From assembly GCA_964502425.1 (NCBI GenBank), contig CAZCWV010000002.1, forward strand, positions 1 to 33,254: a stretch of 33,254 bases of DNA. The letters run 5' to 3'. The notes under the pieces were generated by a model. That model was not told the DNA's origin, did no database searches, and saw only the letters and a program-made list of their open reading frames with translations. Source of the stretch: an uncultured Candidatus Peribacteria bacterium. GTDB lineage: Bacteria; Patescibacteriota; Gracilibacteria; Peribacterales; Peribacteraceae. Made by a program: the position numbers and the translations under genes. Shown piece after piece: positions 194 to 31,619 of the stretch. The number at the start of each line of letters is the position of its first letter. Position 1 is the first letter of the stretch.

Positions 194-215
194 GGGGGAG
201 GGGGAGGAAGCCGGT

Positions 216-2312
216 TCACTTGCACTCGTACTCGCAGGAGGAGCGCGGGTAGACGCTATCCCGGGACGTGAGCGGGAAGGCCGAACAGAGGAGCGAGCGC
301 AGGCCCATGCCGGAAGGGCAGAGGTAGGGGGAGACCGTTGCGGGGATGGCCGGGCAGATCGTCTTGCAGACCGGGGAACCATTCTGCTGTCCGCAGAAGG
401 GGACGCAGTATGAGGTGGCGGGGACATTGGAGGAGGGAGTGGGGACCGAAGGGGGGAGGGGAGGCGGGGGGGGAGAAGGAGATGTGTCGGGGGGAGAGGA
501 AGGACCGTTGGGATTGCAGGTGAGCATGACGTCGGTCATGCGCCGAGCCAGTTCGCCGGACACGCCATGTGCCACGGTCTCGAGCGAGATGGGGGACGTG
601 CAAGCGCCGATAGCGAAGACGAGTTGGAAGCTTGCAGACTGGTTGGCGGAGAGGACAAAAGGAGCCCCATTCCCGATCGTGGAACAGTCCACGGTATCCT
701 GGCTGCCCGCGCGGAGCGTGCAGTGTGCGTCAGAACGGTTCGGTATGAAGAACAGCCCCGGGGGCACGGTGTGGGTAACGAGGAGGGCGTCGCTGGGGCT
801 CGCGCTACGGTTCACCGCCATAATGAGGAGCGTGATGGTGCCTTCCTCCTGGGTGGACGGCATGCCCACGTGCACGGAGATGGGGCCGCTGGCAGCGGCA
901 AACGCCGCGCTGGTGAGGAGTGATGCTTCGTGGCGGCGGGAGCGAGTCAGCCGTTCGACGATTGCCCGCAAAAAGCCCAGGGCGCTCTCTTCATGCGGAA
1001 TGCAGGTGTAGGAACAGGCAGGTTCTCCCTGCAGGTCGCAGGCGAAGGACTGGACGCGTTCCCCCGATGAACAGAGGAAGGCGTTCGGCGTGGGGAGGGA
1101 GGGGAGATTGGCACACACGATCTTGCATCGGCGGTCCCCCTCGTCCCCCGTGCAAAAGGCGGAACACTCGCTTTGGCGCAGCGTCTGATTCTGCGCGGCG
1201 GAAGAAGAGGAGCGGGGGCGGGAGCTGGAAGAAGAGCGCGACGAACGGCTCGACGCTCTGCGCGAGGAAGACGAGCTCTGGGCGGATTCCTCGCACCAGC
1301 AGCATTCTCCGCCGCAGGAATCGGTGCCGCAGGATCCACTGCATCGTAGGAAGGACCCCGAGGGGCACGTGGGGATGGTGAGCGTGCAAGCATTGCCATC
1401 CATTTCGTAGGAGCAGCGCGCGGGCAGGATGCACTCCCCCATCTCTTCATCGCTGCACGCCCCCCCATATGCAATCTGCACGCCCGCCCGGTCCGCCCAA
1501 CAAGCATTGACGTACGTGCTGCCGTCATTGCCGCAGACCGCGAACGTGTCATCTCCGCAGATCTCTTCCGAGGGGGGAGAAGAGTCATGGGGGATACAAC
1601 GGCAGCAGAAGCCGACACAGGCATCCGTCCCGCAACTGCCGTCGCACGACAAGTCCCCGTCCACGCAGTCGATCGATGTGGAAACGCAGGCATCGCCGAT
1701 GAGCAGGCGGTCGCACTGGTAGGATGATTGACATTCCTCCCAGTTGTCTGGGGGGGTCCAATCGCCCGCAGACGAGGACGTACAGACGCCCCCATGCGCA
1801 ACTTCCGTGCCGGCGCAGAAGGCTTGGCATTGATTCCCGTACGTGATGCCGTCCGCGCCGCACACCGGCAGGTACTCCATCGTGCAGAGGCAATCTTCCG
1901 GGGGAGGGGATGAGACGGGGGTGCAGATGGAGGGGCTTCCCTCACAGATCCAATCCTGTTCCACGTAGCACCACATGCCGCACCCGTCACCGTCCATAAT
2001 GTTCCCGTCATCGCATTCTTCGTACGTCTGCACTTCGCCGTTGCCACACACCGCGTCGGCTTCGGCCGGCGTGCAGATGGATGGGCTCCCTTCGCACGTC
2101 CACCCCGGTTCGGGGGAGCACAGGTCGGTACAGCCGTCTCCTTCGTCCACATTGCCATCGTCACACTCTTCTCCCGCTTCGACGATGCTATTCCCGCACA
2201 CATTGAGGATAAGACCTTGGAGCCGTATTGGCCGTTCTCCCTGCATCCAGATGAGGACAGCCAGGAAGGGAATGCCGATGGCGGGGATGGCCAACGCGCG
2301 GACGCTGCGCAT
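216..2312 (-). CDS. Secreted or anchored cysteine-rich multidomain protein with Myxococcus-type Cys-rich repeats and Kazal-like domains
   Basis: 698-aa ORF with an N-terminal hydrophobic signal/anchor ([17 protein letters not shown]). Two [23 protein letters not shown] repeats and two Kazal-like units ([29 protein letters not shown]). Two CxxSCGTDxCxxxCC modules, a Ser/Arg low-complexity linker, a Pro-rich linker, and two copies of a further Cys module. Confidence 0.85.
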
Positions 2313-2367
2313 GGAAGAATCCTATTATTCTTCACCGGAAGGGGCAAAGGCGGAGGATGGACGGGGA

Positions 2368-2395
2368 GTATTGAGTATTGGGTATTGCGTATTGA
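2368..2395. repeat. Tandem heptamer array (GTATTGN)x4
   Basis: gtattga gtattgg gtattgc gtattga read directly. It lies in the intergenic region upstream of the Cys-rich protein gene. Confidence 0.9.
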
Positions 2396-2464
2396 GGATG
2401 CCATGCCAAAAAATGGCTTCACAGAGATATCTACCCATTCTTTCCTTCGTACTACTCTGTTCTT

Positions 2465-2842
2465 TCACTTCAATAACATCTTCATCAGCCAGTTCCCGAT
2501 TCCAAACACGAGGATCACCGCCAGCCAGCCCGGGAGTCCTCCCCCGATGCGCAGCGTGACGAGTGCGGGCTCCATGTGCTGCGCGATCCACACCGTGAGC
2601 CATACGAAAATGCCGTTCACGAGGATGAAGGCGAGGAGCGTGGCGACGAGTTTGAGGGGAAGCGTGGCCACGTCCAAAAGTGGCCGGACGAGAATGTTCA
2701 GGAGCGTCAGGAGCGCCCCCACGATGACCGATGCCGCAAAGCCGCCGCCGAGGACGAACGCCTCCGGGACGAAGGCAATGAGCGCCCACACGAGGGCGAC
2801 GTTCAAGGCAAAACGGAGGGCGAGGCGGAGAGGGAGGGACAT
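2465..2842 (-). CDS. Small 4-TM membrane protein, DUF360 / phage-holin-4-like family
   Basis: 125 aa, four hydrophobic spans. The sequence style (GALLTLLNILVRPLL...LVNGIFVWL) is typical of the YvlD/DUF360 family. Confidence 0.7.
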   Translation of the reverse strand: MSLPLRLALRFALNVALVWALIAFVPEAFVLGGGFAASVIVGALLTLLNILVRPLLDVATLPLKLVATLLAFILVNGIFVWLTVWIAQHMEPALVTLRIGGGLPGWLAVILVFGIGNWLMKMLLK

Positions 2843-2882
2843 GCTGGGAGGAAGTATAGCTTCGGGAAGGGGGCGAATGGAA

Positions 2883-2972
2883 CGTTACTTCGTTATTTCG
2901 TTATCTCGTGCAGATGTTTTGATTGTAGTGAAGCGCGATACGAAGTAACGAAAGAACGAGATAACGAAATAA
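2883..2972. repeat. Inverted pair of tandem octamer arrays, (CGTTAYYT)x3 and (CGARRTAA)x4
   Basis: cgttactt cgttattt cgttatct at 2883-2906 and cgaagtaa cgaaagaa cgagataa cgaaataa at 2941-2972. The arrays are mutually complementary, giving a long slippable hairpin just downstream of the ileS stop. Confidence 0.85.
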
Positions 2973-2975
2973 CTA

Positions 2976-5900
2976 TCAAATTTTTTCGAACCTAAACCTC
3001 ACCTTCTCCCCGTTCAGTTCCGCATCGTGCCAGGGGCCGAGGTTCTCCGCGAACGTCGCGTTCGTCTCTTCCGCGATCATCGTGCCGCAGAAGTGGAGCA
3101 CGGGGGCGGCGCCCTCGATCTGCAGCGTAATCCGATCCGCGATGCCCAATCCGGCCGCCTTCCGCTCGCGCTGCACCGCGCGGATGAGGTCCCGTCCGCA
3201 CCCTTCCAGCGACAGTTCCTCCGTGAGGCCCGTATCCAAGCTGACGACGACGCCCTTGTCGCCGGCGACGTTGCGTCCTTCCTTCCCCACGTAGACGACG
3301 GTCGCCTCGTCGGAGGTGAGTGCCTCGTCGAGGATCACGATGACGCCGTTCTTCCCCTGCGTAAACTCGCCGCGCTTGCCCGCCGCGATCACATCCTGCA
3401 CGCGCGCGCCGAGGCGGGGGCCCGCTACGCGCGCGTCCACCCGGGCGATGGGCATTCCCAGTGTTCCCGGGTCATCCGTCACGTCAATCCGCTTCACGTT
3501 CAATTCTTCCTGTAGCAGCGCCGTTTCCTCATCCGTGAGCGGTTCCTCCCGCCCTTCGGCTCCGCTCAGGGACGCGGGCAGGGCGACGGACGCTGTGGCG
3601 AGGGGCTGGCGGAGCTTGACTCCGGCGTCCGCGCGGAGCTTGAGCCCGAGCGAGACGATGGTGCGGAGCAAGCGGTTCTTGCGGAGGAGCTCTTCCTCTT
3701 CCTCCGTCAGCGTCCGCGTGGTCGGCCAGTCCGTGAGGTGGATGGAGCCGTGGTCTTCACGTACCAAGTTCAGGTAGATGGCGTCCGTGACGAACGGGCA
3801 AAACGGCGCGAGGAGTTGGGACATCGTCAGTAATACGTCGTAGAGGGTGGCGCAGGCGGCTGTGCGGTCCTCCTCCTGTCCTGCGCTCATGTTGTCACCA
3901 GTCTCATGGATGCTCCCTTTACCGGCGAAGCGGCGGCGCGAGAGGCGCACGTACCAGTTCGTGAGGCTGTCGATGGTGTCGAACAGTTCCCCGCAGGTGG
4001 CCGAGAGGTCGTAGCGTTCCATTTGCTCCGTCATGCGGTTGACGAGGTCCTGCACCTCGGCGCGGATCCAACGGTCGAGCGGATGCGCGGAAGCGGCGCG
4101 CGTCTCGCGCGGCTCCCATCCCGCCGCGTTGGCGTACGTGACGAAGAAGGCGTAGGCGTTCCAGAAGGGGAGCAGGACGTTGCGCAGCGTCTCCTCCACG
4201 CCCTTCTCCGAAAAACGCATGTCCTCGCCGCGCACGGCGGGGGAGCTCATGAGCATGAAGCGGACGGCGTCCGCCCCGTGGCGCTCCGCCACCTCCAGCG
4301 GCTCGGGGTAGTTCTTCAGGCGCTTACTCATCTTCTTCCCGTCCTCGGCCAGCACCGTGCCGTTGACCACGCAGTGGAAGAACGCGGGGCGGTCGAAGAG
4401 GGCGGTGGAGAGGACGGTGAGGGTGTAGAACCACCCGCGCGTCTGATCAATCCCCTCCGCGATGAAGTCCGCGGGGAAGCCCGGCGGAAGCTCCGTCCCC
4501 TCCGCCTTCTTCTGCACGTGCTCGATGTCGAAGGGGAAGTGCGACTGCGCGTAGGGCATGGCGCCGCTCTCGAACCAGCAGTCCAGCACGTCCGGTATGC
4601 GGCGGAAGAGCGGGGTCGGTTTTCCCTCCTCGGCGGGCGCCGCTTCCCACGTGATGGGGTCCACTGTCTCCTTGTGCAGGTCGAGTTGCGCCCCCGCCTC
4701 GTGGTCCCAGTAGAACGTCTGCGTGTCCGCGTACTCCGGGTACGGCTGGCGCGTGAGCTTGGCGGGGTCTTCCTTCGTGAAGTAGTGCTTGAGGTTCAGC
4801 AGGGGATCGGCGTGCGTGACCACCACGATGTGCTCGCCGCGGTGGCGGGGCAGTACGTCCTCCAGAAACGACTTCACGCGCACCTGCACCTCCTGCCACG
4901 TCTCCATGCCGGGGAAGTGGTAGATGCTCTCCATGTCGTTCGTCTGCATCTTGTGCGCCCGCCGCGCCTTGACGAAAGCCAGGTCGGAGAAGTCCACGCT
5001 CTTGCCCTCATACTCCCCGAACTTCACTTCCCGCAGCCGCTCATCCACGGCGATGCCGGCGCCCGTCTGCTTGGCCACGGCTTTGGCCGTCTGTTGCGTG
5101 CGGCAGAGGGGAGAGGCGTAGATGCGCGTCACGTCCTGGGTCTTGAGGAACACGCCGGCCTCCTTCGCCTGCTTCTTCCCGCGCGCGGTGAGGTCCGTCC
5201 CCGGCACTTCCCCCTGGTAGACGGGCTTCACGTTCCCCGCGCTCTCGCCGTGGCGCAGGATCGTCACCTTTGTGAAACGTTCCGGCACTCTTTGCATCAG
5301 CTCATCCCGGCTCCCGATCACCTCCACCTGCCCCGTCTCCGCGCAGCGCCAGATGGGGAGCGGCGTCCCCCAGTACCGGTTGCGGGAGATCGCCCAATCG
5401 CGCGCTCCCTCCAACCACTTGCCGAACCGCCCGTCGCGGATGTGCGCGGGAACCCACTCCGTCTCCGCGTTCACCTGGAGCATCCGCTCCTTGATCTTCT
5501 CCACGGCCACGAACCACGAGGACGTGGCGTAGTTCAAGAGCGGCGAATCACAGCGCCAGCAGTGGGGGTAGCTGTGGCGGAAATTCTCCTGCTTCCAGAC
5601 GAGGCCCTTGGCGCTTACGTCCGCAAGGAGTTTCTTCTCCCCGTCCTTTACGAATGATCCCGCGTACGGTCCGGCGGTCTCCGTAAAGTGTCCCGTCATG
5701 TCCACGTCCATCACGATGGGGAGGCCGTTCTTCTTTGCGGCTTCCATATCCACTTCCCCGTACGATCCGTTGATCGTCACGATGCCTGTTCCCTCCCCGG
5801 CTTCCACATAGTCCCCCGCGAAGATGCGGTACACGTTTGGGTTCTCCTTCACCTCAGGGATGTCACCGTACCACGGCGCAATGTGCGCGTAGCGTTTGCC

Positions 5901-6836
5901 GACGAGAGCGCTCCCCGGGAATTCCTCCAGAACTTCGTACCCTTCCGTTCCCTTCATTACGTCCGCAACGCGGTCCTTGATCATGATGAGCCGCTCGTCG
6001 CCCGCTCGGACCTTTGCGTACGTCGCATCCGGTTTGACGGAGAGCCCCATCGTGGAGAGCGTGCTCCAGGGCGTCGTTGTCCAGGCAAGGACGTATGTCC
6101 TGCGATCCTTGGAATCCTTGGCATCGTCGGCATCCGTCAGGAGGAACTTCCACGTCACCGCAACATCCGATACTTCCTTATATCCCTGCGTCACCTCGAA
6201 GTTGGCGAGTGGCGTGACGCAGCGGGGGCAGATTTGCATGGCTTTCTTCCCCTCATACAGCAATCCCTTCTCATACAAGCTCTTGAACGTCCACCAGATG
6301 CTCTCCATGTAATCGGGGTCCATCGTCCGGTAGTCCCAATCCATATCCACCCAGCGGCCCATCCGTTCCACGGCCTTGCGCCACTCCTTCGTGTAGCGCT
6401 GCACCGCGGCGCGGCAGAGGCCGTTGAAGGCCTTCACCCCCATCTCCTCAATCTGCTGCTTGGACTGGATGCCGTGCTCCTTCTCGATCTCGTACTCCAC
6501 GGGAAGGCCGTGGCAGTCCCAGCCGAAGCGCCGCTGCACGGCCTTGCCGCGCATCGTCCGGTAGCGGGGGATCACGTCCTTAATCGTTCCCGCCAGGATG
6601 TGGCCGTAGTGGGGGAGACCGGTGGCGAAGGGGGGGCCGTCGAAGAAGCTGTACTCAACGCGCTCCTTCCCCTTTACCCTGCCCAGGGGGATTTTCCGCC
6701 GCTTCCCCGTCTTCTCGCTCACCCCGCGGCGCCGGTCAATGGACCGCTGGAAGGTGTTCTCCTCCTGCCAGTACGTGAGGATCGTGCGCTCAAGGTCCGG
6801 GAAGGACTGTTTAGGATCGACGGGGTCAAAGGGCAT
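2976..6836 (-). CDS. ileS: Isoleucyl-tRNA synthetase (eukaryote-like type 2) carrying an internal histidine-phosphatase domain insertion
   Basis: Class I motifs HYGH and KMSKR, plus GWDCHGLP, WAISRNRYWGTPLPIW and DCWFESGAMPYAQ. I moved the start to MPFDPVDPKQSFPDLE (ATG 6834-6836). The 55 extra N-terminal residues in the ORF track run into the AT-rich promoter region. Confidence 0.95.
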   Translation of the reverse strand: MPFDPVDPKQSFPDLERTILTYWQEENTFQRSIDRRRGVSEKTGKRRKIPLGRVKGKERVEYSFFDGPPFATGLPHYGHILAGTIKDVIPRYRTMRGKAVQRRFGWDCHGLPVEYEIEKEHGIQSKQQIEEMGVKAFNGLCRAAVQRYTKEWRKAVERMGRWVDMDWDYRTMDPDYMESIWWTFKSLYEKGLLYEGKKAMQICPRCVTPLANFEVTQGYKEVSDVAVTWKFLLTDADDAKDSKDRRTYVLAWTTTPWSTLSTMGLSVKPDATYAKVRAGDERLIMIKDRVADVMKGTEGYEVLEEFPGSALVGKRYAHIAPWYGDIPEVKENPNVYRIFAGDYVEAGEGTGIVTINGSYGEVDMEAAKKNGLPIVMDVDMTGHFTETAGPYAGSFVKDGEKKLLADVSAKGLVWKQENFRHSYPHCWRCDSPLLNYATSSWFVAVEKIKERMLQVNAETEWVPAHIRDGRFGKWLEGARDWAISRNRYWGTPLPIWRCAETGQVEVIGSRDELMQRVPERFTKVTILRHGESAGNVKPVYQGEVPGTDLTARGKKQAKEAGVFLKTQDVTRIYASPLCRTQQTAKAVAKQTGAGIAVDERLREVKFGEYEGKSVDFSDLAFVKARRAHKMQTNDMESIYHFPGMETWQEVQVRVKSFLEDVLPRHRGEHIVVVTHADPLLNLKHYFTKEDPAKLTRQPYPEYADTQTFYWDHEAGAQLDLHKETVDPITWEAAPAEEGKPTPLFRRIPDVLDCWFESGAMPYAQSHFPFDIEHVQKKAEGTELPPGFPADFIAEGIDQTRGWFYTLTVLSTALFDRPAFFHCVVNGTVLAEDGKKMSKRLKNYPEPLEVAERHGADAVRFMLMSSPAVRGEDMRFSEKGVEETLRNVLLPFWNAYAFFVTYANAAGWEPRETRAASAHPLDRWIRAEVQDLVNRMTEQMERYDLSATCGELFDTIDSLTNWYVRLSRRRFAGKGSIHETGDNMSAGQEEDRTAACATLYDVLLTMSQLLAPFCPFVTDAIYLNLVREDHGSIHLTDWPTTRTLTEEEEELLRKNRLLRTIVSLGLKLRADAGVKLRQPLATASVALPASLSGAEGREEPLTDEETALLQEELNVKRIDVTDDPGTLGMPIARVDARVAGPRLGARVQDVIAAGKRGEFTQGKNGVIVILDEALTSDEATVVYVGKEGRNVAGDKGVVVSLDTGLTEELSLEGCGRDLIRAVQRERKAAGLGIADRITLQIEGAAPVLHFCGTMIAEETNATFAENLGPWHDAELNGEKVRFRFEKI

Positions 6837-6967
6837 GCGGAAGGGGGGCAGGATCAAGGGGATGCGGAAGAGTTCCACGTACGCAACGATGCATATTGTA
6901 TGGGGAGAGTGTACAGAATTTTGTTGATACTTGCTGGGCAGAGAGATGGAAAAATTGATATCAGTAT

Positions 6968-6996
6968 TTGACAATATCCACGTGAGAAGGTACAAT
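6968..6996 (+). promoter_or_regulatory. Consensus sigma70-type promoter TTGACA-17 nt-TACAAT
   Basis: ttgaca at 6968-6973, a 17-nt spacer, tacaat at 6991-6996. The ORF-track ATG at 6995 lies inside the -10 box, so the downstream ORF more likely starts at ATG 7016. Confidence 0.6.
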
Positions 6997-7015
6997 GTCA
7001 CTACGTTTTTTTTCT

Positions 7016-7342
7016 ATGAGAACTGAGACGACCACGCGCATCGGCACGGACTACTACCATCCGATTCAGCAGAGCGAAACGGAAGAGCCTTCTCTTGATG
7101 CTACCCAGGAAGAAATCCACCACAACGTTGCCCGCGTACTGGGGATTTTTTGGAAAAGAGGCGCTGATCTTCTCTTTACCTTGGGAATGAGTGAGGAGCA
7201 GATGCACATTTGCGTGATGCAGGAACTGGGCGGAGCGGAGGGGACGAAGATGGATATCAAGGATTTTCGACATTTTGTTGCCCAGGTCATTTCTCAGCTC
7301 ATTGTAGACGGAGGGAGGAACACGGTGATTTCTCGGAAGTGA
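7016..7342 (+). CDS. Hypothetical 108-aa protein
   Basis: ORF in frame with track ORF 6995..7342, and the first ATG downstream of the consensus promoter. No recognisable motifs. Lower GC than flanking genes. Confidence 0.5.
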   Translation: MRTETTTRIGTDYYHPIQQSETEEPSLDATQEEIHHNVARVLGIFWKRGADLLFTLGMSEEQMHICVMQELGGAEGTKMDIKDFRHFVAQVISQLIVDGGRNTVISRK

Positions 7343-7418
7343 CGTCTGCAGGATTTGCGCATACCCATGATAAAATCGGTATCCTGGAGGACACGCGGAA
7401 TGGTATGATTCCTGTTCC

Positions 7419-9353: not shown

Positions 9354-9409
9354 TTATATGGTATGATGACAATCCTTAATTTTCTTCAGTACCGTTAAAC
9401 CTCTTTGTC

Positions 9410-11155: not shown

Positions 11156-11326
11156 GGAGAGGAAGGGATGGAGGGTTGGACGAGCGTCCGGACAAGTATA
11201 TCCTTTGGTTCGTCGGTTTCCTCCCTGAACCAGTCGCAGAGTTTACCCCGAGAAGACACGAGGGGCTCCGGTTCAGGGCAAGCGGTTTCCTCGGATTCTT
11301 CGGATCTCTCGGTTCCCTCTTCGTCC

Positions 11327-11984: not shown

Positions 11985-12042
11985 GTTTCTGTCTGGAACA
12001 CGGTGTCCAACACCGATTCTCATCTAGGGTACAATTGCGCCT

Positions 12043-14025: not shown

Positions 14026-14057
14026 TGGCGTGATTATGCAGGGAGGAGAGCGATGAA

Positions 14058-17139: not shown

Positions 17140-17286
17140 AAGAGGGTGGATGCCGGAAGGCTGAAGAACAAAAAAATAGCCCCGCGGCGCGCGAGGGCTG
17201 AGCCTCGAGCTTATCATAAAAAATGCGCCATGTCTAGGGTTTAGGGGCTTCAGTGTGGGAAAAACCCGCATCGTATCGGCGAGTGT

Positions 17287-17314
17287 TTGACAAACAAAAA
17301 AAGACGGTTATTGT
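17287..17314 (+). promoter_or_regulatory. Sigma70-like promoter TTGACA-16 nt-TATTGT upstream of the dksA-like gene
   Basis: ttgaca at 17287-17292 and tattgt at 17309-17314. The ORF-track TTG start at 17287 coincides with the -35 box, so it is unlikely to be the real start. Confidence 0.45.
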
Positions 17315-17340
17315 TTCAATACATTCCTTCCCCCAATTCC

Positions 17341-17793: not shown

Positions 17794-17805
17794 TACCATG
17801 AGGCA

Positions 17806-18498
17806 GTGTTTACCGGCATCATCGAAGCAACGGCGGAAATAGTAAGGAATGACCATGGGAAGCTGACGATGCAGCGTCCCGCAAGCTTTGATGACCTTAA
17901 GCGCGGATCGAGCGTCTGCGTGTCCGGCGCGTGCTTGACGGTCACCACGCTCACGGAGAAGGAGATGGCGTTCGACGTGGTGCCCGAGACGCTCCGGAAG
18001 ACGTCACTGGGGGAAAAGAAGATTGGTGACCGTTTGAACCTCGAGCGCGCCCTCCCTGCTTCCGGCCGGTTCGACGGGCATATCGTTCAAGGGCATGTCG
18101 AAGGGGTTGGTGTTGTTGTTTCTCCCTCTCTCCTCACCTCTCCCCCGGGGGGGGAGAGGGATGTGTGTGTTTCTGTTGTTCCACAAGACAACCACAAAAC
18201 AAAAACATGCCCTTCCCCCATCGGGGGAAGGGTTAGGGAAGAGGGAAGACAAGCGAGCGTACTCATCATTCGTCCCTCTCGGGATCTTCTTCCATCCATC
18301 GTCTCCAAGGGTTCCATCACGCTCGATGGCGTATCGTTGACGGTGGTGGATACGACGAAGGATTCCTTCTCCGTCGCCCTCATTCCGACCACGTTGCGGG
18401 AGACGACCCTCGGACTTCTAGCAAAAGGCGACCGTGTGAACGTGGAAACGGATATACTGGGACGCTACGTTCGCCAATTCTCTTCCTCCCGACTATGA
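17806..18498 (+). CDS. ribE: Riboflavin synthase alpha chain, with a roughly 40-aa in-frame insertion
   Basis: MFTGIIE, GSSVCVSGACLTV, GHIVQGHVEGVG, KGSITLDGVSLTV. GTG start 12 nt after the dksA stop. The ATGA overlap with ribH joins the two genes. Confidence 0.9.
   Translation: MFTGIIEATAEIVRNDHGKLTMQRPASFDDLKRGSSVCVSGACLTVTTLTEKEMAFDVVPETLRKTSLGEKKIGDRLNLERALPASGRFDGHIVQGHVEGVGVVVSPSLLTSPPGGERDVCVSVVPQDNHKTKTCPSPIGGRVREEGRQASVLIIRPSRDLLPSIVSKGSITLDGVSLTVVDTTKDSFSVALIPTTLRETTLGLLAKGDRVNVETDILGRYVRQFSSSRL
18115..18255. mobile_element. Palindromic MITE/RPE-like element inserted in frame in ribE
   Basis: Two perfect 10-bp hairpins with 3-nt loops (cctctccccc/gggggagagg at 18137-18159; cccttccccc/gggggaaggg at 18210-18232). 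A GT/CA low-complexity core lies between them. The flanks are mutually complementary (ttgtttctccctctctcc versus ggaagagggaagacaa). Confidence 0.6.
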
Positions 18499-18956: not shown

Positions 18957-19015
18957 GTCATTGAACAAACTTCGTGTTCAGCATACATTCAGAGGGTAAT
19001 CTCCCCCCTGTACCC

Positions 19016-20386: not shown

Positions 20387-20603
20387 GATCGAGTGGGGGT
20401 GTGGGTCGTTCTCGCGTCGGATGGATGCCGAGGATGCCGACGATTCCGAAGAGCAGTCTTGTCGGAGGTTATATTCGTAGAATGGCCGCTCCTCGGCATC
20501 GCCAGCCCGCCCGAAGCTCGCAAGCGAAGGAGGGTCGGTTTCCTCGGCATCTTTCCTCAAAACTCCTCTTCCCGAGGTCCACTTCGGTTATACTATTGCT
20601 TCC

Positions 20604-21815: not shown

Positions 21816-21826
21816 AGTCCGGGCAC

Positions 21827-22068: not shown

Positions 22069-22079
22069 TTCGAGAATGC

Positions 22080-23482: not shown

Positions 23483-23690
23483 AGGAACGTTGGAAAGGTT
23501 ACCGGATATTCTACGTTCGGCCTCGCGTGAGTGCCAGTTCTTGGGGGTGCGAGTGGCGAGATTCGTGGGATAGTATTTTTGATGTCATTCCACTTTTCCG
23601 CAATGAAGTGGCACGAGGAAATTGACGCTGGCTCATGGAAAATGCGAAATGCAAAAATGGGACATTCCATCATTGCACATCCACACTTTC

Positions 23691-23837: not shown

Positions 23838-23912
23838 GTAGGAGGATAATAATCGATAGTATTGAGTGCTAGTTTCGGAACGTCAATGAGGGTTCTATGG
23901 CGGCTCGTACGT

Positions 23913-23955
23913 ACAAACACCGCCCCTGATGCCGGAAGATGGCAATCAGGGGCGG
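23913..23955 (-). terminator. Intrinsic terminator-like hairpin downstream of the small membrane protein gene
   Basis: Perfect 11-bp stem ccgcccctgat / atcaggggcgg with a 14-nt loop, followed on the minus strand by TGTTTGT. Confidence 0.5.
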
Positions 23956-23973
23956 ATGGGCGGGACTTGGCGG

Positions 23974-24324: not shown

Positions 24325-24677
24325 ACACCCCACGCTCCTTTCTGCCTCGAAGGCAAATAAGAACCGGCACGCTTCCTGACGGTGGTGCCAAGTACCGGGT
24401 GATACGACGGAAGAACTCGTATCAGTAAAAGTATAACTCTTCCCCCGGGGCGGGGATCAAGAACATGAACGTCATTCAGTTTCTTCTTCCGCGACCTCGT
24501 CCATTCCGTCACCCCGTTCCTCCGTGAGCGCCGCAAACCAATTATACGTTTCCTTCGATCCTTTCGGTCCGTTGCACCGGACGGCGTTCCAGAGTGACGA
24601 GAGGAAGGAGAGGATACGGCGCATCGTGTCCCATGATAACCGCAGCAGCTCCGGCGTCCAGTGATTCACCGTAGTCC

Positions 24678-25802: not shown

Positions 25803-25944
25803 AGGGTGGGGGAAAACGTTGCAGAAGAGCGTACGAATGTCCCCCAAAAAATCAAGGGTCTAAAGAGGCAGGTTTGCCCGGAGAGGAATGAAGAATCCCA
25901 GCCATTCCTTTGACCGGAATGCGGAAAGGGACGACCATACGACC

Positions 25945-26193
25945 ATGATGAATTGGTGGTATGGCTACGGGTCGGGGTTCTGGGGTTTTGGGATGATAAT
26001 GATGGTCCTGTGGTGGGCGCTGATCGCCGTCGCGATCGTGGCGCTCATCCGGTGGATCCGTTCCGGGGCGGGGGAGGGGACAGGCGGTCACGCCGGCGGC
26101 CGCGGGTCTGCGCTGGATATCCTCAAAGAGCGGTATGCGAAGGGGGAGATCACGAAGGAGGAATTGGAGGAGATGAAGAAGGATGTTCAATAG
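25945..26193 (+). CDS. SHOCT-domain small membrane protein
   Basis: MMNWWYGYGSGFWGFGMIMMVLWWALIAVAIVALI (TM segment) followed by ALDILKERYAKGEITKEELEEMKKDV (SHOCT motif). Confidence 0.8.
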   Translation: MMNWWYGYGSGFWGFGMIMMVLWWALIAVAIVALIRWIRSGAGEGTGGHAGGRGSALDILKERYAKGEITKEELEEMKKDVQ

Positions 26194-26240
26194 CATTCCA
26201 TCCCTTCTTGTTCGCCGGAAAATGGTGGAATCGATTTTCT

Positions 26241-26270
26241 GAAGACCTGCGGGTCGAAGACCCACTCTGG
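26241..26270 (+). repeat. REP-like palindromic element, copy 1
   Basis: gaagacctgcgggtcgaagacccactctgg. The core is the hairpin gcgggtc-gaa-gaccc(a)c. Confidence 0.8.
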
Positions 26271-26312
26271 TGATTGTGCAGAGAATGGTCATGATCGTAG
26301 CCTTGTTGCTGA

Positions 26313-26375
26313 CCGAGAGCGGGTCTTCTGCCCCTTTCCACCCCTTGAAACAGAGCGGGTCTTCTGACCCGCAGG
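26313..26375 (-). repeat. REP-like element, one partial copy (26313-26334) and one full inverted copy (26351-26375)
   Basis: ccgagagcgggtcttctgcccc and cagagcgggtcttctgacccgcagg. The full copy is the reverse complement of copy 1. Confidence 0.8.
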
Positions 26376-26485
26376 ACAAGAAGATCATCCTCGTTTGTTC
26401 TGCTCAGCTAGCAAACGTCCGTCCGCGAACGCGAATTAAAAAAGTGCCTGCGCGATCCTTCCCTGAGGAATATACTTCCTCCACT

Positions 26486-26562
26486 GCCCCCGTAGCTCAG
26501 CTGGATAGAGCGCCTGGCTTCGGACCAGGAGGTCGTGGGTTCAACTCCTGCCGGGGGTACCA
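26486..26562 (+). tRNA. tRNA-Arg (anticodon UCG) with encoded CCA
   Basis: A cloverleaf can be folded by hand. Acceptor GCCCCCG/CGGGGGT, D arm GCTC-AGCTGGATA-GAGC, anticodon arm CCTGG-CTTCGGA-CCAGG, T arm GTGGG-TTCAACT-CCTGC, then discriminator A and CCA. Confidence 0.9.
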
Positions 26563-26804
26563 CGTAAAATTGCGCGCAGCGAAGCGAGCCGCATATTTTA
26601 CGTGGGACGTGGCGGCGCAGCCGCTTTACGTCCCCGCGCGCAATCACGTGGCGCCGCCATCAGCACAACCCAAGGTTCAATAATTTCTAACCTGCTCCAG
26701 TATTGAGTACCAGCATTAGCGAGTAGAGAATAACGGAACGAAATCCCAAAGTTTCCTCCGAGGCCCCGGGTTCGGGGGTACTCCTCTTGGTATATACTCT
26801 TCTT

Positions 26805-27155
26805 ATGCCTCTCAACGACGATGACCTCGACGAATCCCTCAGCAGCCGCAAGGCGCTCGAGCGGTCCGATCATGGCAAGCAGGAAAAGAAGGAGCAGAAG
26901 GTGAAGCAGGAGCACGGGAAGCAATTGAAAGAACTCCAGCTTCAGGTGCTCAAGCAGCAGGTGGCGCCGGGGAAGGCGGAGGAGGGCGGGAAGGAAGAGG
27001 GGATTAAAACCCGGACGCGGGAGGAGGAAGCGCGGCAGAGCATGGATACCGTCCGGTCGAAGCCCGATCCCGAGACGATGATCAAGAAGGAGGAGCAGGA
27101 GGCGGCGGCGGAGAAGCAGGCGCCGTATGAGAAGGGGAAGGATCAGACGGCGTGA
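26805..27155 (+). CDS. Lys/Glu-rich, probably disordered, 116-aa protein
   Basis: MPLNDDDLDESL...KQEKKEQKVKQEHGKQLKELQ. ATG 26805 is preceded by a CT-rich tract. The track start is a TTG at 26787. Confidence 0.55.
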   Translation: MPLNDDDLDESLSSRKALERSDHGKQEKKEQKVKQEHGKQLKELQLQVLKQQVAPGKAEEGGKEEGIKTRTREEEARQSMDTVRSKPDPETMIKKEEQEAAAEKQAPYEKGKDQTA

Positions 27156-27158
27156 CGA

Positions 27159-27284
27159 GCGGAAAGCTATAAGCGGAAAGCGGTAAGCTCTTCTACTTTT
27201 TGATGCCGTAGCGATTATTCTCAATATGCATACAGCTTAAGTCTTACCGCTTATAGCTTATCGCTTACAGTTTAGAGCTTACAT
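27159..27284. repeat. Inverted pair of tandem heptamer arrays, (GCGGWAA)x4 and (CTTAYNG)x7
   Basis: gcggaaa gctataa gcggaaa gcggtaa at 27159-27186. cttaagt cttaccg cttatag cttatcg cttacag tttagag cttacat at 27236-27284. The arms are mutually complementary. Confidence 0.85.
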
Positions 27285-27323
27285 CTTCGCTTATTGCCGA
27301 TTCATGTTTATACTGCCGTAAAC

Positions 27324-28079
27324 ATGACAACAGCCCTCTACACCCTCGGCAGCGTTGTCCTCGTCAGCGCTTTGTCGCTGGTCGGCGCGGCGTTCCTCTT
27401 TCTGGGCGAAAAGACGCTGCGGGGGATCCTCCTCTACCTCGTCAGTTTCTCCTCGGGCGCGTTGCTCGGCGACGTCTTCATCCACATGGTGCCGGAGATG
27501 GCGGAGGGAGGGGATTTGACCTCGAGCCTCGTGATCGTTCTCGTTGGCATCGCGTTCTCCTTCGCGGTGGAGAAGGTCATTCACTGGCGCCACTGCCACT
27601 TCCTCCCGGAGGATGACCGGAAGCACGAGCACTGCCACGATGCGGGGACGATGAGCCTTGTGGGGGACAGCGTCCACAACTTCATCGACGGCCTCGCCAT
27701 CGCCTCCAGCTACCTCGTGAGCGTGCCGGTGGGGATCTCCACCACGATCGCGGTGGTCTTCCACGAGATTCCCGACGAGATGGGGAATTTCGCCGTGCTC
27801 CTCCACAGCGGGTACAGCAGGCGGAAGGCGCTCCTCTTCAACTTTCTCTCGGCGCTCGTGGCCGTGGCGGGGGCGGTCCTCGTCCTCGTCGGCAGCAGGG
27901 CGTTTGTGCCGCTCAACGCCTACCTCCTTCCCTTCGCCGCGGGGAACCTGCTCTACATCGCGGGGACGGACCTCATCCCGGAACTCCACAAGGAAATGCG
28001 CATCACATCTTCCTTCTTCCAACTCGTGATGATGGTGGCGGGGATGGGGGTGATGGGAGCGATGCTGCTGTTGGACTGA
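27324..28079 (+). CDS. zupT: ZIP family metal (zinc) transporter
   Basis: FHEIPDEMGNFAVLL signature, HNFIDGLAI, and multiple TM helices. Start set at MTTALYTLGS. Confidence 0.9.
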   Translation: MTTALYTLGSVVLVSALSLVGAAFLFLGEKTLRGILLYLVSFSSGALLGDVFIHMVPEMAEGGDLTSSLVIVLVGIAFSFAVEKVIHWRHCHFLPEDDRKHEHCHDAGTMSLVGDSVHNFIDGLAIASSYLVSVPVGISTTIAVVFHEIPDEMGNFAVLLHSGYSRRKALLFNFLSALVAVAGAVLVLVGSRAFVPLNAYLLPFAAGNLLYIAGTDLIPELHKEMRITSSFFQLVMMVAGMGVMGAMLLLD

Positions 28080-28229
28080 GCGGCTGCTGTCCCTTTTTCC
28101 ATAGGTCTCTGTGACCCAGGAAGTGCAATATGTATCTGAACCTATGCAGGAGTGAATGTGGTTTCGGTGTTGACTGCAGTAGCGGTCTTCGTGAAAATCA
28201 TTGCCTATTCCCATTGAAACTCCCGAAGC

Positions 28230-28553
28230 ATGGAAGCAACGGAAATGGAAAGCCAGGGCACCGATCTGTACGAGGCGTATTGCCAGTTTGTCCAAGAAAG
28301 CGGCAATGCGATCGCATCGCAGTGGTCCTGTGCAGCGAGTCGCGCACAGTTTCTCGCGGCGAATTCACCTTTACCACGCAGGGAGTTCGAGCGGCTTTTC
28401 CTGGCAATGCCTCATGGGACGCAACTGGCTTTTGCCCGACGCATGCGTTGTGGATTCGATGTCGCAGTTGTTACTGAATCAAGGAACGTCGTCGGGCTGG
28501 TCATGAGAAACCTTCTCCTCAATGGCGGAGAGGCCGAGGGCGTCGAGGAATAG
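28230..28553 (+). CDS. Hypothetical 107-aa protein
   Basis: ORF with plausible amino-acid composition in a lower-GC stretch. No motifs recognised. Confidence 0.4.
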   Translation: MEATEMESQGTDLYEAYCQFVQESGNAIASQWSCAASRAQFLAANSPLPRREFERLFLAMPHGTQLAFARRMRCGFDVAVVTESRNVVGLVMRNLLLNGGEAEGVEE

Positions 28554-28602
28554 CTACGCGCTCCTTTCTCTTTCCAGATCGTATTCGTCACTTTGCAGCG
28601 AA

Positions 28603-28989
28603 TTACAAAATGGATGCTACGTCGTTCGCCGATGGCTCACCGATGACCCGGCCCGAACGCAGAGATCGTTCATGCCATTCCCGGAGCCCTTCCATCACGG
28701 ATACATCCCGGTCACTGAAGCTGAATCCTTCGACGGTGGGAAGCCGTTCAAACATGCGCTGCTGGTTCTGCGCGTCTTGAATGCCACGAGCGTTCTCCGG
28801 TGCAGCGGCATGTTGTGGATCCAGAAGAGAAAGCAATTCCCGTCGCTCCGCACTCTGAAAGTCGGTTGCGGCAATGGATTCAACCTGCTTCCCCGGGACG
28901 TCGGGAGTCACGGGCTCCGTTGGGCGTTCGGCGGAATCGGGTGTGAGTGGCTTCATAGCGTCATGGTACCACAGAACGTTGCCATTCAT
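28603..28989 (-). CDS. Hypothetical 128-aa protein
   Basis: Last gene on the strand of the GT2/flippase-like cluster. Its composition is more protein-like than the overlapping plus-strand ORF 28522..29052. A purine-rich GAAGGAAAA tract lies upstream. Confidence 0.45.
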   Translation of the reverse strand: MNGNVLWYHDAMKPLTPDSAERPTEPVTPDVPGKQVESIAATDFQSAERRELLSLLDPQHAAAPENARGIQDAQNQQRMFERLPTVEGFSFSDRDVSVMEGLREWHERSLRSGRVIGEPSANDVASIL

Positions 28990-29058
28990 GGTTCGTCGTT
29001 TTCCTTCATCTGTGCTGTGGTCAGAAGAGGGAGTGGCTGCGTACCACGCTGACAGTTT

Positions 29059-30012
29059 TCACGGGGCAGGGGATTCCCCAGCCGCTTTCGCATACCCCCT
29101 CATCTCGTAGCCCGAGAGGAGCGCGAGCGCGATGAGGAGCGGGACGGCGTAGAAGAGGAGGCGAAACAGGAGGAGCGCGCCGAGGACGGTGCTTGTGGGA
29201 TAGGAGTCCCGGAGGAAGAGGATCATCGCCGCGTCGAAGACGCCGAGGCCGCTCGGCACTTGGCTCGCGAAGCCCGAGATTTGCGCGATGACGTAGAAGC
29301 CCAGGAATGTGAGCCACGGCAGGTCGGAGGCGGGGAGGAGGGCGAAGAGCACGGTGCCGGTGAGCGCCACTTCCACGCCGGAGAGCAGGATTTGCCCAAA
29401 GGCCACGCGCGCCGGGGGAATGCGGACCTGCCACTTCCGGTATCCCACCGTCCGCTCGGGGAAGAATATGCTCCCGCCCACGTAGAGGATGACGGGGAGG
29501 AGCAGGCCGGCGCCGAGGAGGGAGAGGGAGAGCGGCGGGAGCGGCAGGGACGCGGAGAGGAGAGGGGCGTTGAGGATGAGCGCGAGTCCCGAGGTGAGGA
29601 GGAGGGAGAGCGTGAAGGTGGTGAAGCCGAAGGCCGTGATCTTGGCGACGTTCGCGAGGTCAAAGCCCCATCTTGAGTACAGGCGGTACCGCAGCGACCC
29701 GCCCGTGAGCACGGCGAAGCCGAGCGTGATGCCGAAGGTGTTCCCGACCAAGGATGTAAACGTGATCTTCCGGAGCGGGAGGCGGTAGCGGAGATAGTAG
29801 AAGGCGAGGAGGTCGTAGGAGCTTTGGATGGCGTAGACGACGGCCATGCACGCGAGAGCGGCGCCCAGGCGGGCGGGCGGAAGATGGGTGAACGCGGCCC
29901 ACACGTCTTCGGGATCCACGCCGCGCAGGAGCTTCACGAGCGTCATCATGGCCAGCGCGAAGATCGCGATCACCAGGAGGGGGCCGACGATGCGGCGGAT
30001 CATGGAGCTCAT
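29059..30012 (-). CDS. Multi-TM flippase-like protein (UPF0104 / lysyl-PG synthase TM-region family)
   Basis: 317 aa with about 8 TM helices. ATGA start/stop overlap with the upstream GT2 gene. The upstream half of the 534-aa track ORF is an out-of-frame read-through across the GT2 gene. Confidence 0.65.
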   Translation of the reverse strand: MSSMIRRIVGPLLVIAIFALAMMTLVKLLRGVDPEDVWAAFTHLPPARLGAALACMAVVYAIQSSYDLLAFYYLRYRLPLRKITFTSLVGNTFGITLGFAVLTGGSLRYRLYSRWGFDLANVAKITAFGFTTFTLSLLLTSGLALILNAPLLSASLPLPPLSLSLLGAGLLLPVILYVGGSIFFPERTVGYRKWQVRIPPARVAFGQILLSGVEVALTGTVLFALLPASDLPWLTFLGFYVIAQISGFASQVPSGLGVFDAAMILFLRDSYPTSTVLGALLLFRLLFYAVPLLIALALLSGYEMRGYAKAAGESPAP

Positions 30013-30767
30013 CGGATGACGGTATGCTCGTGTTTCCAGGGTTTTCCGAAAAATTTCTCCGAGAAGTAGGCCATGGCGTACTCGTACCCCACGCGCAGGA
30101 CGCCGCGCCGCGCCAGCCGGCGGCCGGACATCTGCGTGGTGAGCGCGGGCAGAAAGAGCACTTTCCCCGTGCCATGCAGGCGCTTGCCCGTGTCCACGTC
30201 GTCGCCGTAGAAGGTGCGCGAGGTGTCGAAGCCGCCCGCGTCCAGGAATATCTGGCGGCGCAGGATGACGTTGCCGCCCATCACCTGCGCTCCGGTGAGG
30301 AAGCCGGAGATGTGCGCGGCGTCGTTCCATCGCCCCGTAACCCAGCGGTTGAACGGCGAGAGATCGTAGTACTCGCACGGGCCGCTGGCAGCCACCGCTT
30401 CCGGATGCGCCGCGAAAGCCGACACGGCCGCCGCGAACCACTCCCGGGGGAGCAGCACGTCCGCGTCGATGAATGCCACCAGGTCTCCCGTGGCTGCGAG
30501 GAGGCCTCGTTGACGCGCGTGGTTCGTACCCTTCTGCGGCTCTGGCACCACGCGGACGCCCGCTTCCCGCGCGATGGCCGCCGTGCGGTCCGTGCTGGCG
30601 TTGTCCACCACGATCACTTCGCAGGGGTGCGGCGCGGCCGAAGCACGGATGTGTGCGAGGCACGCACCGATGTACCGCTCCTCGTTGTGCGCGGGGATCA
30701 CGACGCTCACGCGCGGCGCGGTCTCGTTCGTAGTGGCCGGAAGCGGTTGTGCGTTATCGGATGTCAC
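30009..30767 (-). CDS. Family 2 glycosyltransferase
   Basis: VSVVIPAHNEERYI, VVDNASTDRT, FIDADVLLP. GTG start. Confidence 0.9.
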   Translation of the reverse strand: MTSDNAQPLPATTNETAPRVSVVIPAHNEERYIGACLAHIRASAAPHPCEVIVVDNASTDRTAAIAREAGVRVVPEPQKGTNHARQRGLLAATGDLVAFIDADVLLPREWFAAAVSAFAAHPEAVAASGPCEYYDLSPFNRWVTGRWNDAAHISGFLTGAQVMGGNVILRRQIFLDAGGFDTSRTFYGDDVDTGKRLHGTGKVLFLPALTTQMSGRRLARRGVLRVGYEYAMAYFSEKFFGKPWKHEHTVIR

Positions 30768-31464
30768 GGTAGGTGCGCGTAGCGGGACGGTGCAGGAAGG
30801 ATTCCGAGAGGAAATTGAGGACGTAGATGGTGCCGGTGGAGATGAGACCCTGGGAGCGGAACCGCCGCGCGGACGACGCGACGCGGAAGCGCTGAAGGAA
30901 CCACACTTCCCCCTGCTTCTTGAGCCTGCGGGCGATGTTGGTATCTTCCCCGTAGAACGTGATGGAGGTGTCGAAGCCGCCGATGGCTTCCAGGGCTTCC
31001 TTCCGCGCCGCGAAGTTGCTCCCCAGCACCATGGCGCCGGTCATCATGTTTAAGGGACGCGCAACGTTCCAGTACAAGCGCACGATCCGGTTCTTCCACG
31101 CGGGAAAATCGTAGTACTCGCACGGGCCGCTGAGGCAGACGAGGCGGGGATTCTCCCGGAATCCTTTCTCGATCATGGCCAGCCAGTCTTTGGGGACGCG
31201 GGAATCGGCATCCACGTACGCAAGAATCTCCCCCGTGGCCGCCTTCCGCCCCGCTTCGCGCGCGTGCGTGATGCCCTTCTTCCCCTCGCGCACCACCCGG
31301 ACCATCGGATGGCGCCTCGCCACGTCCGCCGTGCGGTCCGTGCTGGCGTTGTCCACCACGATGATCTCGCGCAGGTCCGGTGTCTTCCCCGCGAGGATGC
31401 TCTCGATGCACGGTTCGACGTACTGCTCTTCGTTGTGCGCGGGAATGATTACACTGATATCCAT
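30754..31464 (-). CDS. Family 2 glycosyltransferase (tandem paralog)
   Basis: ISVIIPAHNEEQYV, VVDNASTDRT, YVDADSRVP. The two paralogs share SGPCEYYD, GGFDTS, FYGDD/FYGED and an -IR C-terminus. Start set at MDISVII (ATG 31464), preceded by ctcccctcctccctcccc. Confidence 0.9.
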   Translation of the reverse strand: MDISVIIPAHNEEQYVEPCIESILAGKTPDLREIIVVDNASTDRTADVARRHPMVRVVREGKKGITHAREAGRKAATGEILAYVDADSRVPKDWLAMIEKGFRENPRLVCLSGPCEYYDFPAWKNRIVRLYWNVARPLNMMTGAMVLGSNFAARKEALEAIGGFDTSITFYGEDTNIARRLKKQGEVWFLQRFRVASSARRFRSQGLISTGTIYVLNFLSESFLHRPATRTYRDIR

Positions 31465-31619
31465 TGAAGAAGGGGAGGGAGGAGGGGAGAGGTGCGCGCG
31501 GACGGTCTCGTTGTTCAAGGGGCTTTCCCTGTTCTTGAGGATTCTACCCTCCTCAGCCGCCGATTTCACTCATGGAATTCGCTCATTCTTGGCGATGTGG
31601 CTTCGGCATTGTCTCTTTT

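Follow-up and report, generated by a model that had tools for sequence, protein, structure and literature searches.

Leaderless mRNAs are abundant in bacteria such as the Actinobacteria and Deinococcus-Thermus (the so-called ‘group C’ of GeneMarkS-2), which keep the Shine-Dalgarno (SD) sequence for their leadered genes, while bS1-dependent enhancers rich in pyrimidines or U, as found in the S1 targets of E. coli and those of the cyanobacterial rbcL/rbcS type, are gene-specific and usually stand alongside an SD sequence. Initiation in the Bacteroidia is SD-blind across the genome and draws on upstream composition and low structure, the anti-SD core CCUCC mostly being kept yet sequestered by bS21, bS18 and bS6, with adenines upstream of the start codon (PMC7797042, PMC9976891, PMC13000453), and a further set of organisms has been tabulated as ‘no antiSD’ or SD-scarce (PMC6107228, PMC10783764). 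Here, we describe a stretch of 33,254 nucleotides (nt) of contig CAZCWV010000002.1 from an uncultured Candidatus Peribacteria bacterium, hereafter the window, in which most start codons are preceded by a pyrimidine-rich (C/U) tract instead of an SD sequence, and we compare it with related Peribacteria loci and with loci of other phyla.

The loss of both the anti-SD and the SD in Peribacteria is already on record. The supplement of PMC6107228 (Amin 2018) lists Candidatus Peribacter riflensis and two Peribacteria metagenome-assembled genomes (MAGs) as ‘no antiSD’, with the 16S rRNA tail GAACACTTCCTTA in place of the canonical GATCACCTCCTTA, and in PMC10783764 P. riflensis belongs to class iv (‘SD-scarce lacking CCUCC’), its SD usage being 7%. 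The window lineage resembles these organisms, for which P. riflensis and the two MAGs are named with the tail GAACACUUCCUUA, in that both the SD and any motif complementary to the tail are absent. The two studies tabulate the taxon only, do not describe a polypyrimidine start context and leave the motifs TACACT (ranked first among the upstream motifs of P. riflensis in PMC6107228) and TTCTTC uninterpreted; these motifs are recognised here as a -10 box, placed at leaderless distance, and a C/U tract, respectively. In the literature searched, no description of a polypyrimidine start context or of leaderless promoter geometry was found for this class of the candidate phyla radiation (CPR). Main texts that name Peribacteria together with Shine-Dalgarno or ribosome binding site were not found, the combination of Peregrinibacteria and Shine-Dalgarno returned only tabulating or ribosome-survey work, and the Peribacteria genome paper mentions neither promoters nor start codons.

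The Peribacteria differ from the leaderless-rich phyla in their mutated anti-SD, in remaining genes that are wholly without SD, in a pyrimidine-rich discriminator and in a ribE gene that starts with GTG at a putative leaderless distance in five of eight loci. With the Bacteroidia they share genome-wide SD-independence through upstream composition and low structure, whereas their tail carries CUUCC, bS21 is often lacking and the upstream sequence is rich in pyrimidines (Y 0.63) and not in adenines (A 0.21). The likeness to bS1-dependent enhancers lies in SD-less mRNAs whose AUG follows a single-stranded stretch rich in pyrimidines, in a lineage that encodes bS1; in Peribacteria, however, the tract is the genome-wide default, reaches up to the start codon and, in high-GC members, is rich in C, with bS1 binding being putative. 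Our analysis makes it likely that initiation in this lineage is SD-independent and proceeds via leaderless transcripts and via pyrimidine leaders that lack structure and to which bS1 may bind.

SD-free, pyrimidine-rich start codons across the Peribacteria

The identity and orientation of the window genes are backed by Pfam, and the periodicity of GC content at third codon positions (GC3) agrees with the assigned frames. The Pfam-backed genes encode UPF0047/yjbQ, a Kazal/DUF4215 protein, DUF360, IleRS, RelA/SpoT, a Nudix hydrolase, AhpC, a GNAT acetyltransferase, a metallophosphoesterase, UvrA, DksA, RibE, RibH, an SLH protein, RibBA, a ZIP transporter, an LPG-synthase-like protein, two GT2 glycosyltransferases and TypA. 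Strand confusion, by which the CCTCC tracts would be the GGAGG of genes on the opposite strand, was ruled out by Pfam orientation and GC3 frame. Twenty-six window starts were curated and scored within -25..-1, and blind calls were made separately from coding potential and codon statistics, with the upstream sequence being ignored. The Peribacteria set consists of the window and 14 related loci, whose UvrA is 72-80% identical to that of the window, and holds 226 blind-called starts at a GC content of 40-59%. Protein matches to the window UvrA at 76-87% identity bear the names Peribacteraceae, Peribacteria or Peregrinibacteria, in keeping with a Peribacteria source. It was compared with 66 loci of other phyla (924 starts), fetched with the same query and passed through the same pipeline, of which those with at least eight starts (n = 58) were used for per-locus comparison, and with the internal ATGs of the same Peribacteria loci as a second control. 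The pooled start contexts were measured at -20..-1.

A pyrimidine run of at least six (Y6+) precedes 17 of the 26 curated window starts and GGAGG precedes none, in agreement with a previous sequence-only reading of this DNA, which had reported C/U tracts without GGAGG at most starts. Eight of the strings that it quoted were recovered, all on the coding strand, 5' to 3', and directly abutting ATG; the string quoted for the SLH-domain gene has no match as typed, although the tract TCTCCCCCCT is indeed present there (19000-19009, + strand). An SD-like 4-mer occurs at four of the 26 curated starts, one of these lying inside a -10 box and another between box and start codon. Among the blind-called starts of the window, Y6+ runs are found at 58%, compared to 16% of internal ATGs (p = 1.3e-5), and TTCC at 38% compared to 10%. 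The pooled Peribacteria starts show the same, with Y6+ runs at 43% (p = 1e-31) against 11% of internal ATGs and 8% of other-phyla starts, and TTCC at 26%, 7% and 4%, respectively. The reverse is true of SD-like 4-mers, which precede 6% of Peribacteria starts, 19% of internal ATGs and 55% of other-phyla starts, and of GGAGG, which was found at 0 of 226 Peribacteria starts (0%), 2% of internal ATGs and 19% of other-phyla starts. As SD-like motifs are rarer at starts than at internal ATGs, they are depleted and not merely absent, and both the enrichment of tracts over internal ATGs and the non-SD initiation proposed by the sequence-only reading are borne out.

The same pipeline recovered the classic SD signal in the control loci, in the form of a G/A peak at -14..-8. 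The pyrimidine fraction at -15..-1 amounts to 0.57-0.67 in every Peribacteria locus and to 0.28-0.52 in the 58 controls, with no overlap between the two. In Peribacteria, it declines with distance from the start, from 0.63 at -15..-1 to 0.55 at -40..-16 and 0.50 further out, while A is at 0.21 at -15..-1 and G drops to 0.16. A general intergenic or 3'-untranslated-region bias towards pyrimidines was ruled out, as Y is 0.50-0.52 away from starts and the enrichment is limited to ~40 nt upstream; the bias is seen alike in operon-internal, co-directional and divergent contexts. Starts anchored by homology present the same picture: the UvrA starts (MDxIxVKGA) of all 14 loci have a mean Y of 0.74, a G of 0.07 and no SD-like 4-mer, and the RibE starts (M/V-FTGII) of all eight loci have the same upstream context. 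Furthermore, the leaders of orthologous uvrA genes keep their pyrimidine richness and not their sequence, with U prevailing in relatives of low GC content and C in those of high GC content. The SD-free, pyrimidine-rich starts are thus confirmed as real and as found across the Peribacteria lineage.

The sequence-only reading had also equated the tract with the canonical anti-SD core, a claim that gave way to a general polypyrimidine bias. Every pyrimidine 4-mer is enriched upstream of Peribacteria starts, with TTCC ranking top, and TTCC does not peak at any particular distance from the ATG, unlike the SD in the controls. Within Y-runs, TTCC, TTTCC and CTTCC exceed the expectation from composition only 1.5-1.7-fold (TTCC 1.5-fold), and a specific CUUCC/CCUCC motif was rejected, given an excess of just 1.3-1.7-fold within Y-runs and the lack of a positional peak. 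Since all pyrimidine 4-mers are enriched and the spacing is not fixed, the likeness to the anti-SD core arises from base composition and not from a motif: it is a by-product of abundant C and U where the genome is GC-rich, and not of rRNA pairing.

Promoter-like boxes and the altered 16S rRNA tail

A TANNNT hexamer beginning at -14..-11 is present at 29% of Peribacteria starts, compared to 2.3% of internal ATGs and 2.8% of other-phyla starts (p = 8e-44 and 2e-29), with a distance between box and ATG of 6, 7 or 8 nt in 61 of 84 cases and with TATACT and TACACT as the commonest hexamers. In the box-aligned sequences, a pyrimidine occupies -1 in 88%, the extended -10 position is G-rich, and the profile where the TTG of a -35 element is expected reads T 0.55, T 0.51, G 0.31, counts of TTGnnn peaking at a spacer of 17. 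Same-strand spacers are longer in Peribacteria than in other phyla (median 94.5 compared to 65 nt) and tight junctions are fewer. This layout implies mRNAs that would be leaderless or nearly so, the candidates in the window being the genes for the Kazal protein, DUF360, RelA, the GNAT acetyltransferase, RibE (GTG), RibBA, orf26805 and the ZIP transporter. The sequence-only reading overlooked these boxes, which lie 6-8 nt before ~30% of starts, and what it took for a leader tract is at such starts probably in part promoter discriminator DNA and not mRNA.

The ribE orthologues provide a conserved instance, as a box is found 6-11 nt before the start codon in eight Peribacteria loci and keeps its position. 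In five of the eight (17794-17808, + strand, in the window, and loci L002, L005, L007 and L013), the start is GTG (V-FTGII) with the box 6-9 nt upstream, which implies that initiation at this GUG may be leaderless.

As to the ribosome, the 16S rRNA tail of the lineage reads GGAACACUUCCUUA (canonical GGAUCACCUCCUUA), i.e., CCUCC has become CUUCC. The evidence for this tail is at the level of the lineage, namely published tables and metagenome genes, and from it we infer that the window genome itself carries the altered tail. Searching public metagenomes for helix 45 with GAACACTTCCTT after it turned up 65 contigs, whose 16S genes all share an identical 44-nt 3' end, ending GGAACACTTCCTTA. Five of the 65, when scanned with Rfam, proved to be full-length bacterial small-subunit (SSU) rRNA genes terminating at the altered tail, one of them being located on a contig of 1,248,112 bp. 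The genes beside these altered-tail 16S genes, which were picked by the rRNA tail only, have SD-like 4-mers at 14% of starts compared to 22% of internal ATGs, Y6+ runs at 29% compared to 12%, and a -10 box at -17..-10 in 35%.

An altered 16S tail was among the explanations offered by the sequence-only reading, and for the lineage this was correct, the change from CCUCC to CUUCC being seen in the published tables and in the 65 SSU genes. It does not, however, explain the tracts, which are of the same sense as the tail. Indeed, 5-mers complementary to the altered tail CACUUCCUUA precede 3.1% of starts compared to 11.6% of internal ATGs (p = 1.5e-5), and in the flanks of the altered-tail 16S genes the respective values are 5% and 10%. 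A compensated SD pair, in which an AAGGAAG-like motif would be complementary to the altered tail, was not found, such complements being depleted upstream of starts.

Several further features of these 16S genes were recorded. The altered tail is followed by CCAGGGAA in all 65 genes (two with a single-base variant; loci L081-L145, e.g., L097:6665-6720), while the 5' flanks and the later spacer diverge. UUCC and GGAA might fold into a hairpin of 4 bp; alternatively, the mature rRNA may exceed its modelled length. The 16S genes are solitary in the five Rfam-scanned loci (L082, L093, L097, L100 and L103), with no 23S gene within 4-8 kb downstream, and several altered-tail 16S genes carry insertions and measure 1602-2045 nt compared to ~1467 nt (loci of these side observations also include L114, L131 and L144).

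Initiation routes and rival explanations

In the mechanism proposed here, start codons would be chosen without SD pairing by two routes. The first, which would serve ~30% or more of the genes, involves a sigma-70-type promoter (TTG, a 17-bp spacer and TAYAMT) ending 6-8 nt before ATG or GTG, so that the predicted transcription start site (TSS) would lie at, or within a few nt of, the start codon. The short pyrimidine stretch would here be mostly promoter discriminator, leaving the A or G of the start codon as the first usable purine (Y-1/R+1), and such a TSS-focusing discriminator would agree with the Y-1/R+1/Y+2 start element of PMC12641261. By the second route, which would apply to leadered and operon-internal genes, a G-poor, C/U-rich sequence in the 10-40 nt before AUG would lower local RNA structure, leave the AUG accessible and probably offer single-stranded pyrimidine RNA to bS1; the ribH, yjbQ, Nudix, GT2 and dksA tracts of the window fit this second group.

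In a fold test, the upstream 30 nt were replaced by their complement, which keeps the GC content and turns pyrimidines into purines. The predicted energy then went from -9.2 to -11.1 kcal/mol in Peribacteria, i.e., 1.9 kcal/mol more stable, compared to a shift from -10.6 to -11.0 kcal/mol (about 0.5) in the controls. As regards the ribosomal proteins, P. riflensis is annotated with an rpsA of 486 amino acids (aa; K02945, E = 3.5e-116) and only a marginal match for bS21 (supplement of PMC4736985), and a survey reports that Peregrinibacteria are often without bS21 and that CPR bS1 has 3-4 domains (PMC9297842). The prfB gene of P. riflensis is annotated as one open reading frame of 352 aa. The S1 route suggested by the sequence-only reading is plausible given this rpsA gene: the single-stranded pyrimidine tract expected for bS1-assisted, tract-dependent initiation is predicted at these starts, with bS1 binding being putative. 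A stronger version would hold that the polypyrimidine stretch is a positive, lineage-specific recruitment signal that replaces the SD and is read by the shortened CPR bS1 or by purine-rich rRNA such as CCAGGGAA, and not mere structure-free spacer or promoter context; we consider this version unlikely.

A number of observations weigh against the proposal of SD-independent initiation by these two routes. CUUCC is still able to pair with GGAGG via one G·U wobble, and the tail is thus not strictly incapable of pairing. The attribution of the tail to the window lineage is likewise indirect: no contig was found that carries both a close UvrA homologue and a 16S gene of the altered-tail type, and a tblastn search of window and Peribacteria proteins against the 16S-flanking loci returned no shared orthologous region, so that the link stays taxonomic. 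Predicted structure is lower around starts than at internal sites, in Peribacteria and controls alike; as low structure is universal, it does not explain why pyrimidines should be used instead of adenines, and the mild excess of TTCC and CTTCC within Y-runs is also left without explanation. On the promoter side, the -35 signal (T 0.55, T 0.51, G 0.31) is weak, a generic TTGACA/TATAAT scan of the window was not enriched (7 sites compared to 5.5 expected from shuffles), and the term ‘leaderless’ describes a putative state that is read from promoter geometry only.

An alternative reading would see the tract as a novel type of ribosome-binding site that pairs with purine-rich rRNA, for example with a 16S rRNA extended past ...CUUCCUUA and keeping CCAGGGAA, in which UUCC(C) would pair with GGGAA as an SD/anti-SD couple of swapped polarity. 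The conservation of CCAGGGAA behind all 65 altered-tail genes despite diverged flanks would suit this idea, as would the rank of TTCC as the top enriched 4-mer and the 1.5-1.7-fold excess of TTCC, TTTCC and CTTCC within Y-runs. A processing stem is moreover no ready explanation for the conserved element, the complementary TTCCCTGG not being found within 150 nt 5' of the 16S gene in 25 of 26 loci examined. However, the duplex energy of the leaders with ACCAGGGAA is -4.90 kcal/mol compared to -4.88 kcal/mol for shuffled leaders, permuted probes perform equally well, and TTCC lacks the positional peak that the SD has in the controls. Leader pairing with the lineage tail, with the CCAGGGAA extension or with the E. 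coli tail was accordingly rejected, being no better than for shuffled leaders, and TCCCT and longer complements of the CCAGGGAA-type element show no enrichment. UUCC and GGAA can alternatively pair with each other locally as a hairpin, like the anti-SD and spacer of other bacteria, and a ribosome-binding site of the proposed kind is considered very improbable. Somewhat less remote, yet still quite improbable, is that the tracts act purely at the level of the promoter and DNA, as discriminator and TSS context, and have no role in translation. The -10 box is so near to ~29-37% of starts that the tract falls between box and start codon, the pyrimidine at -1 in 88% of boxed starts fits the Y-1/R+1 element (PMC12641261), and the longer spacers and fewer tight junctions are consistent with many single-gene promoters. 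Against this, the 141 starts without a close -10 box are equally pyrimidine-rich across -35..-1 (Y 0.55-0.70), and operon-internal starts (spacer of at most 40 nt) reach Y 0.67 and G 0.12. Within the window, moreover, the ribH tract falls within coding sequence, namely that of ribE, no -10 box accompanies the tracts of yjbQ, Nudix and GT2, which are 13-25 nt long, and the dksA tract is located downstream of a predicted -10 box, in the predicted leader. An explanation by promoters alone thus fails for internal and long tracts.

That the whole pattern should be an artefact of wrong strand, wrong starts or start-caller bias is hardly credible, although some starts are ambiguous (ileS, with ATG 6836 or GTG 6878, GT2b and the LPG synthase), the blind caller could in principle favour ATGs that follow non-coding-like pyrimidine stretches, and the public gene calls of relatives vary at the N-terminus (UvrA, 951-1007 aa). 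Strand and approximate N-termini were set by Pfam, the classic SD peaks were recovered in the 66 control loci, and the homology-anchored UvrA and RibE starts show the pattern. In addition, start-calling bias cannot account for a -10 box peak that is sharp and keeps a fixed distance, and contigs picked only by their 16S tail reproduce the start context. SD-independent initiation through putative leaderless transcripts and pyrimidine leaders is retained as the preferred reading.

Features of the window and consequences for Peribacteria biology

The start-associated features of the window are collected in Table 1.

Table 1. Tracts and promoter-like boxes upstream of window start codons; leaders and leaderless types are predictions.
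Feature	Position	Strand	Start codon, gene and remarks
C/U tract CTTCCTCCCCCTCCCCC, 17 nt	194..210	-	Abuts ATG 193, UPF0047/yjbQ-like gene; 22 nt past stop of upstream gene; no -10 box, operon-internal type
TAGGAT box (2324-2319) + tcttcc	2313..2324	-	ATG 2312, Kazal/DUF4215 protein; 6 nt from box end to ATG, leaderless-type
TATACT box (2858-2853) + tcctcccagc	2843..2858	-	ATG 2842, DUF360 protein; predicted leader ~3-4 nt
C/U tract CCCCCCTTCCGC	6837..6848	-	ATG 6836, ileS; no -10 box nearby
TATGAT box (7404-7409) + tcctgttcc	7404..7418	+	ATG 7419, relA/spoT
Tract TCCCTTCCTCTCC, 13 nt	11156..11168	-	Abuts ATG 11155, Nudix hydrolase; no -10 box
Tract TTCCCTCTTC	11313..11322	+	ATG 11327, AhpC/Redoxin protein
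TACAAT box	12030..12035	+	7 nt before GTG 12043, GNAT acetyltransferase
Tract CTCTCCTCCCT (14050-14040) + CATAAT box-like hexamer (14038-14033)	14033..14050	-	7 nt before ATG 14025, metallophosphoesterase
Tract CCACCCTCTT	17140..17149	-	Abuts ATG 17139, uvrA
TTGACA-16-TATTGT promoter-like site (17287-17314); predicted ~20-nt leader, mostly tract TTCCTTCCCCC (17324-17334)	17287..17340	+	ATG 17341, dksA
TACCAT box	17794..17808	+	6 nt before GTG 17806, ribE; V/M-FTGII N-terminus conserved
Tract TTCTCTTCCTCCC within 3' end of ribE coding sequence	18478..18498	+	ATG 18495, ribH; ribE stop overlaps ribH start (ATGA)
Tract TCTCCCCCCT	19000..19009	+	ATG 19016, SLH-domain protein
TATACT box (20589-20594) + attgcttcc	20589..20603	+	ATG 20604, ribBA
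Tract CCTTTCC	23492..23498	-	ATG 23482, 394-aa protein, no Pfam match
Tract TTTTCCCCC	25808..25816	-	ATG 25802, 375-aa protein, no Pfam match
TATACT box + cttctt	26793..26804	+	ATG 26805; 6 nt apart, leaderless spacing
TATACT box	27309..27314	+	9 nt before ATG 27324, ZIP zinc transporter
C/U tract, 25 nt; uninterrupted 24-nt pyrimidine run CTCCCCTCCTCCCTCCCCTTCTTC at 31489..31466	31465..31489	-	ATG 31464, GT2 glycosyltransferase; no -10 box

Two purine-rich leaders stand apart from this list. The AAGGAG at 24340-24335 (- strand), which the sequence-only reading had placed in a region of accessory appearance, is a real sequence and lies 10 nt before the in-frame ATG 24324; it precedes only a small open reading frame (ORF) of 116 aa without a Pfam match, and nothing shows a function or an accessory region. 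Similarly, ATG 28989, the start of a 128-aa ORF that has no Pfam match, is preceded by GAAGGAAAA (28990-29010, - strand), a sequence complementary to the 16S tail of this lineage. These leaders are isolated cases and represent putative sites only. An Rfam scan of the window returned one tRNA only, with no FMN riboswitch or other leader RNA.

Upstream of uvrA, at 17170-17196 (- strand), a GC-rich hairpin with a T-run (CCTCGCGCGCCGCGGGG CTATTTTTTT) is situated ~20-30 nt before the start, and a similar G/C-rich sequence with a T-run is found at the equivalent position upstream of uvrA in many related loci (L003-L013). The upstream neighbour, dksA, is divergent in the window, and the hairpin may therefore be an attenuator or a bidirectional element and not the terminator of an upstream gene.

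Two proteins of the window are of unusual architecture. The Kazal/DUF4215 protein (216-2312, - strand) is a cysteine-rich protein of 698 aa with Kazal-type protease-inhibitor and DUF4215 repeats, which is unusual for a small CPR genome. IleRS (2976-6836, - strand) has a PGAM-like PF00300 His_Phos_1 domain inserted between its catalytic core and its anticodon-binding domain (residues 580-768 when the ORF is counted from 7001). The same IleRS layout, with two His_Phos_1 stretches (E = 1.9e-76), is found in a related Peribacteria locus (L001:18841-22923), indicating a conserved lineage feature and not an assembly artefact.

The start context also bears on annotation, in that SD-trained gene callers misplace starts in Peribacteria genomes. 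P0002, the closest UvrA homologue (87% identity), has an annotated N-terminus ~27 residues ahead of the conserved one (MISSGLSP...), and its extension, which seems to be a translation of the region upstream of the gene, resembles the upstream frame of the window (MISSRLSP...), which reads through the C/U tract; for this reason, the annotated start of P0002 is probably mis-called in this SD-less lineage. A lineage-specific start model that includes a -10 box at -12±2 and a G-poor upstream sequence would improve CPR annotation.

For the biology of the lineage, the finding raises the question of whether, once the anti-SD is gone, bS1 or the mere lack of structure is enough for start selection, and of why pyrimidines and not adenines are used. 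Beside the A-rich leaders of the Bacteroidia and the classic leaderless phyla, the Peribacteria would represent a third solution to SD-less initiation, in which the anti-SD is mutated, bS21 is frequently lost, starts abut promoters and leaders are rich in pyrimidines, all in the setting of a reduced CPR ribosome.

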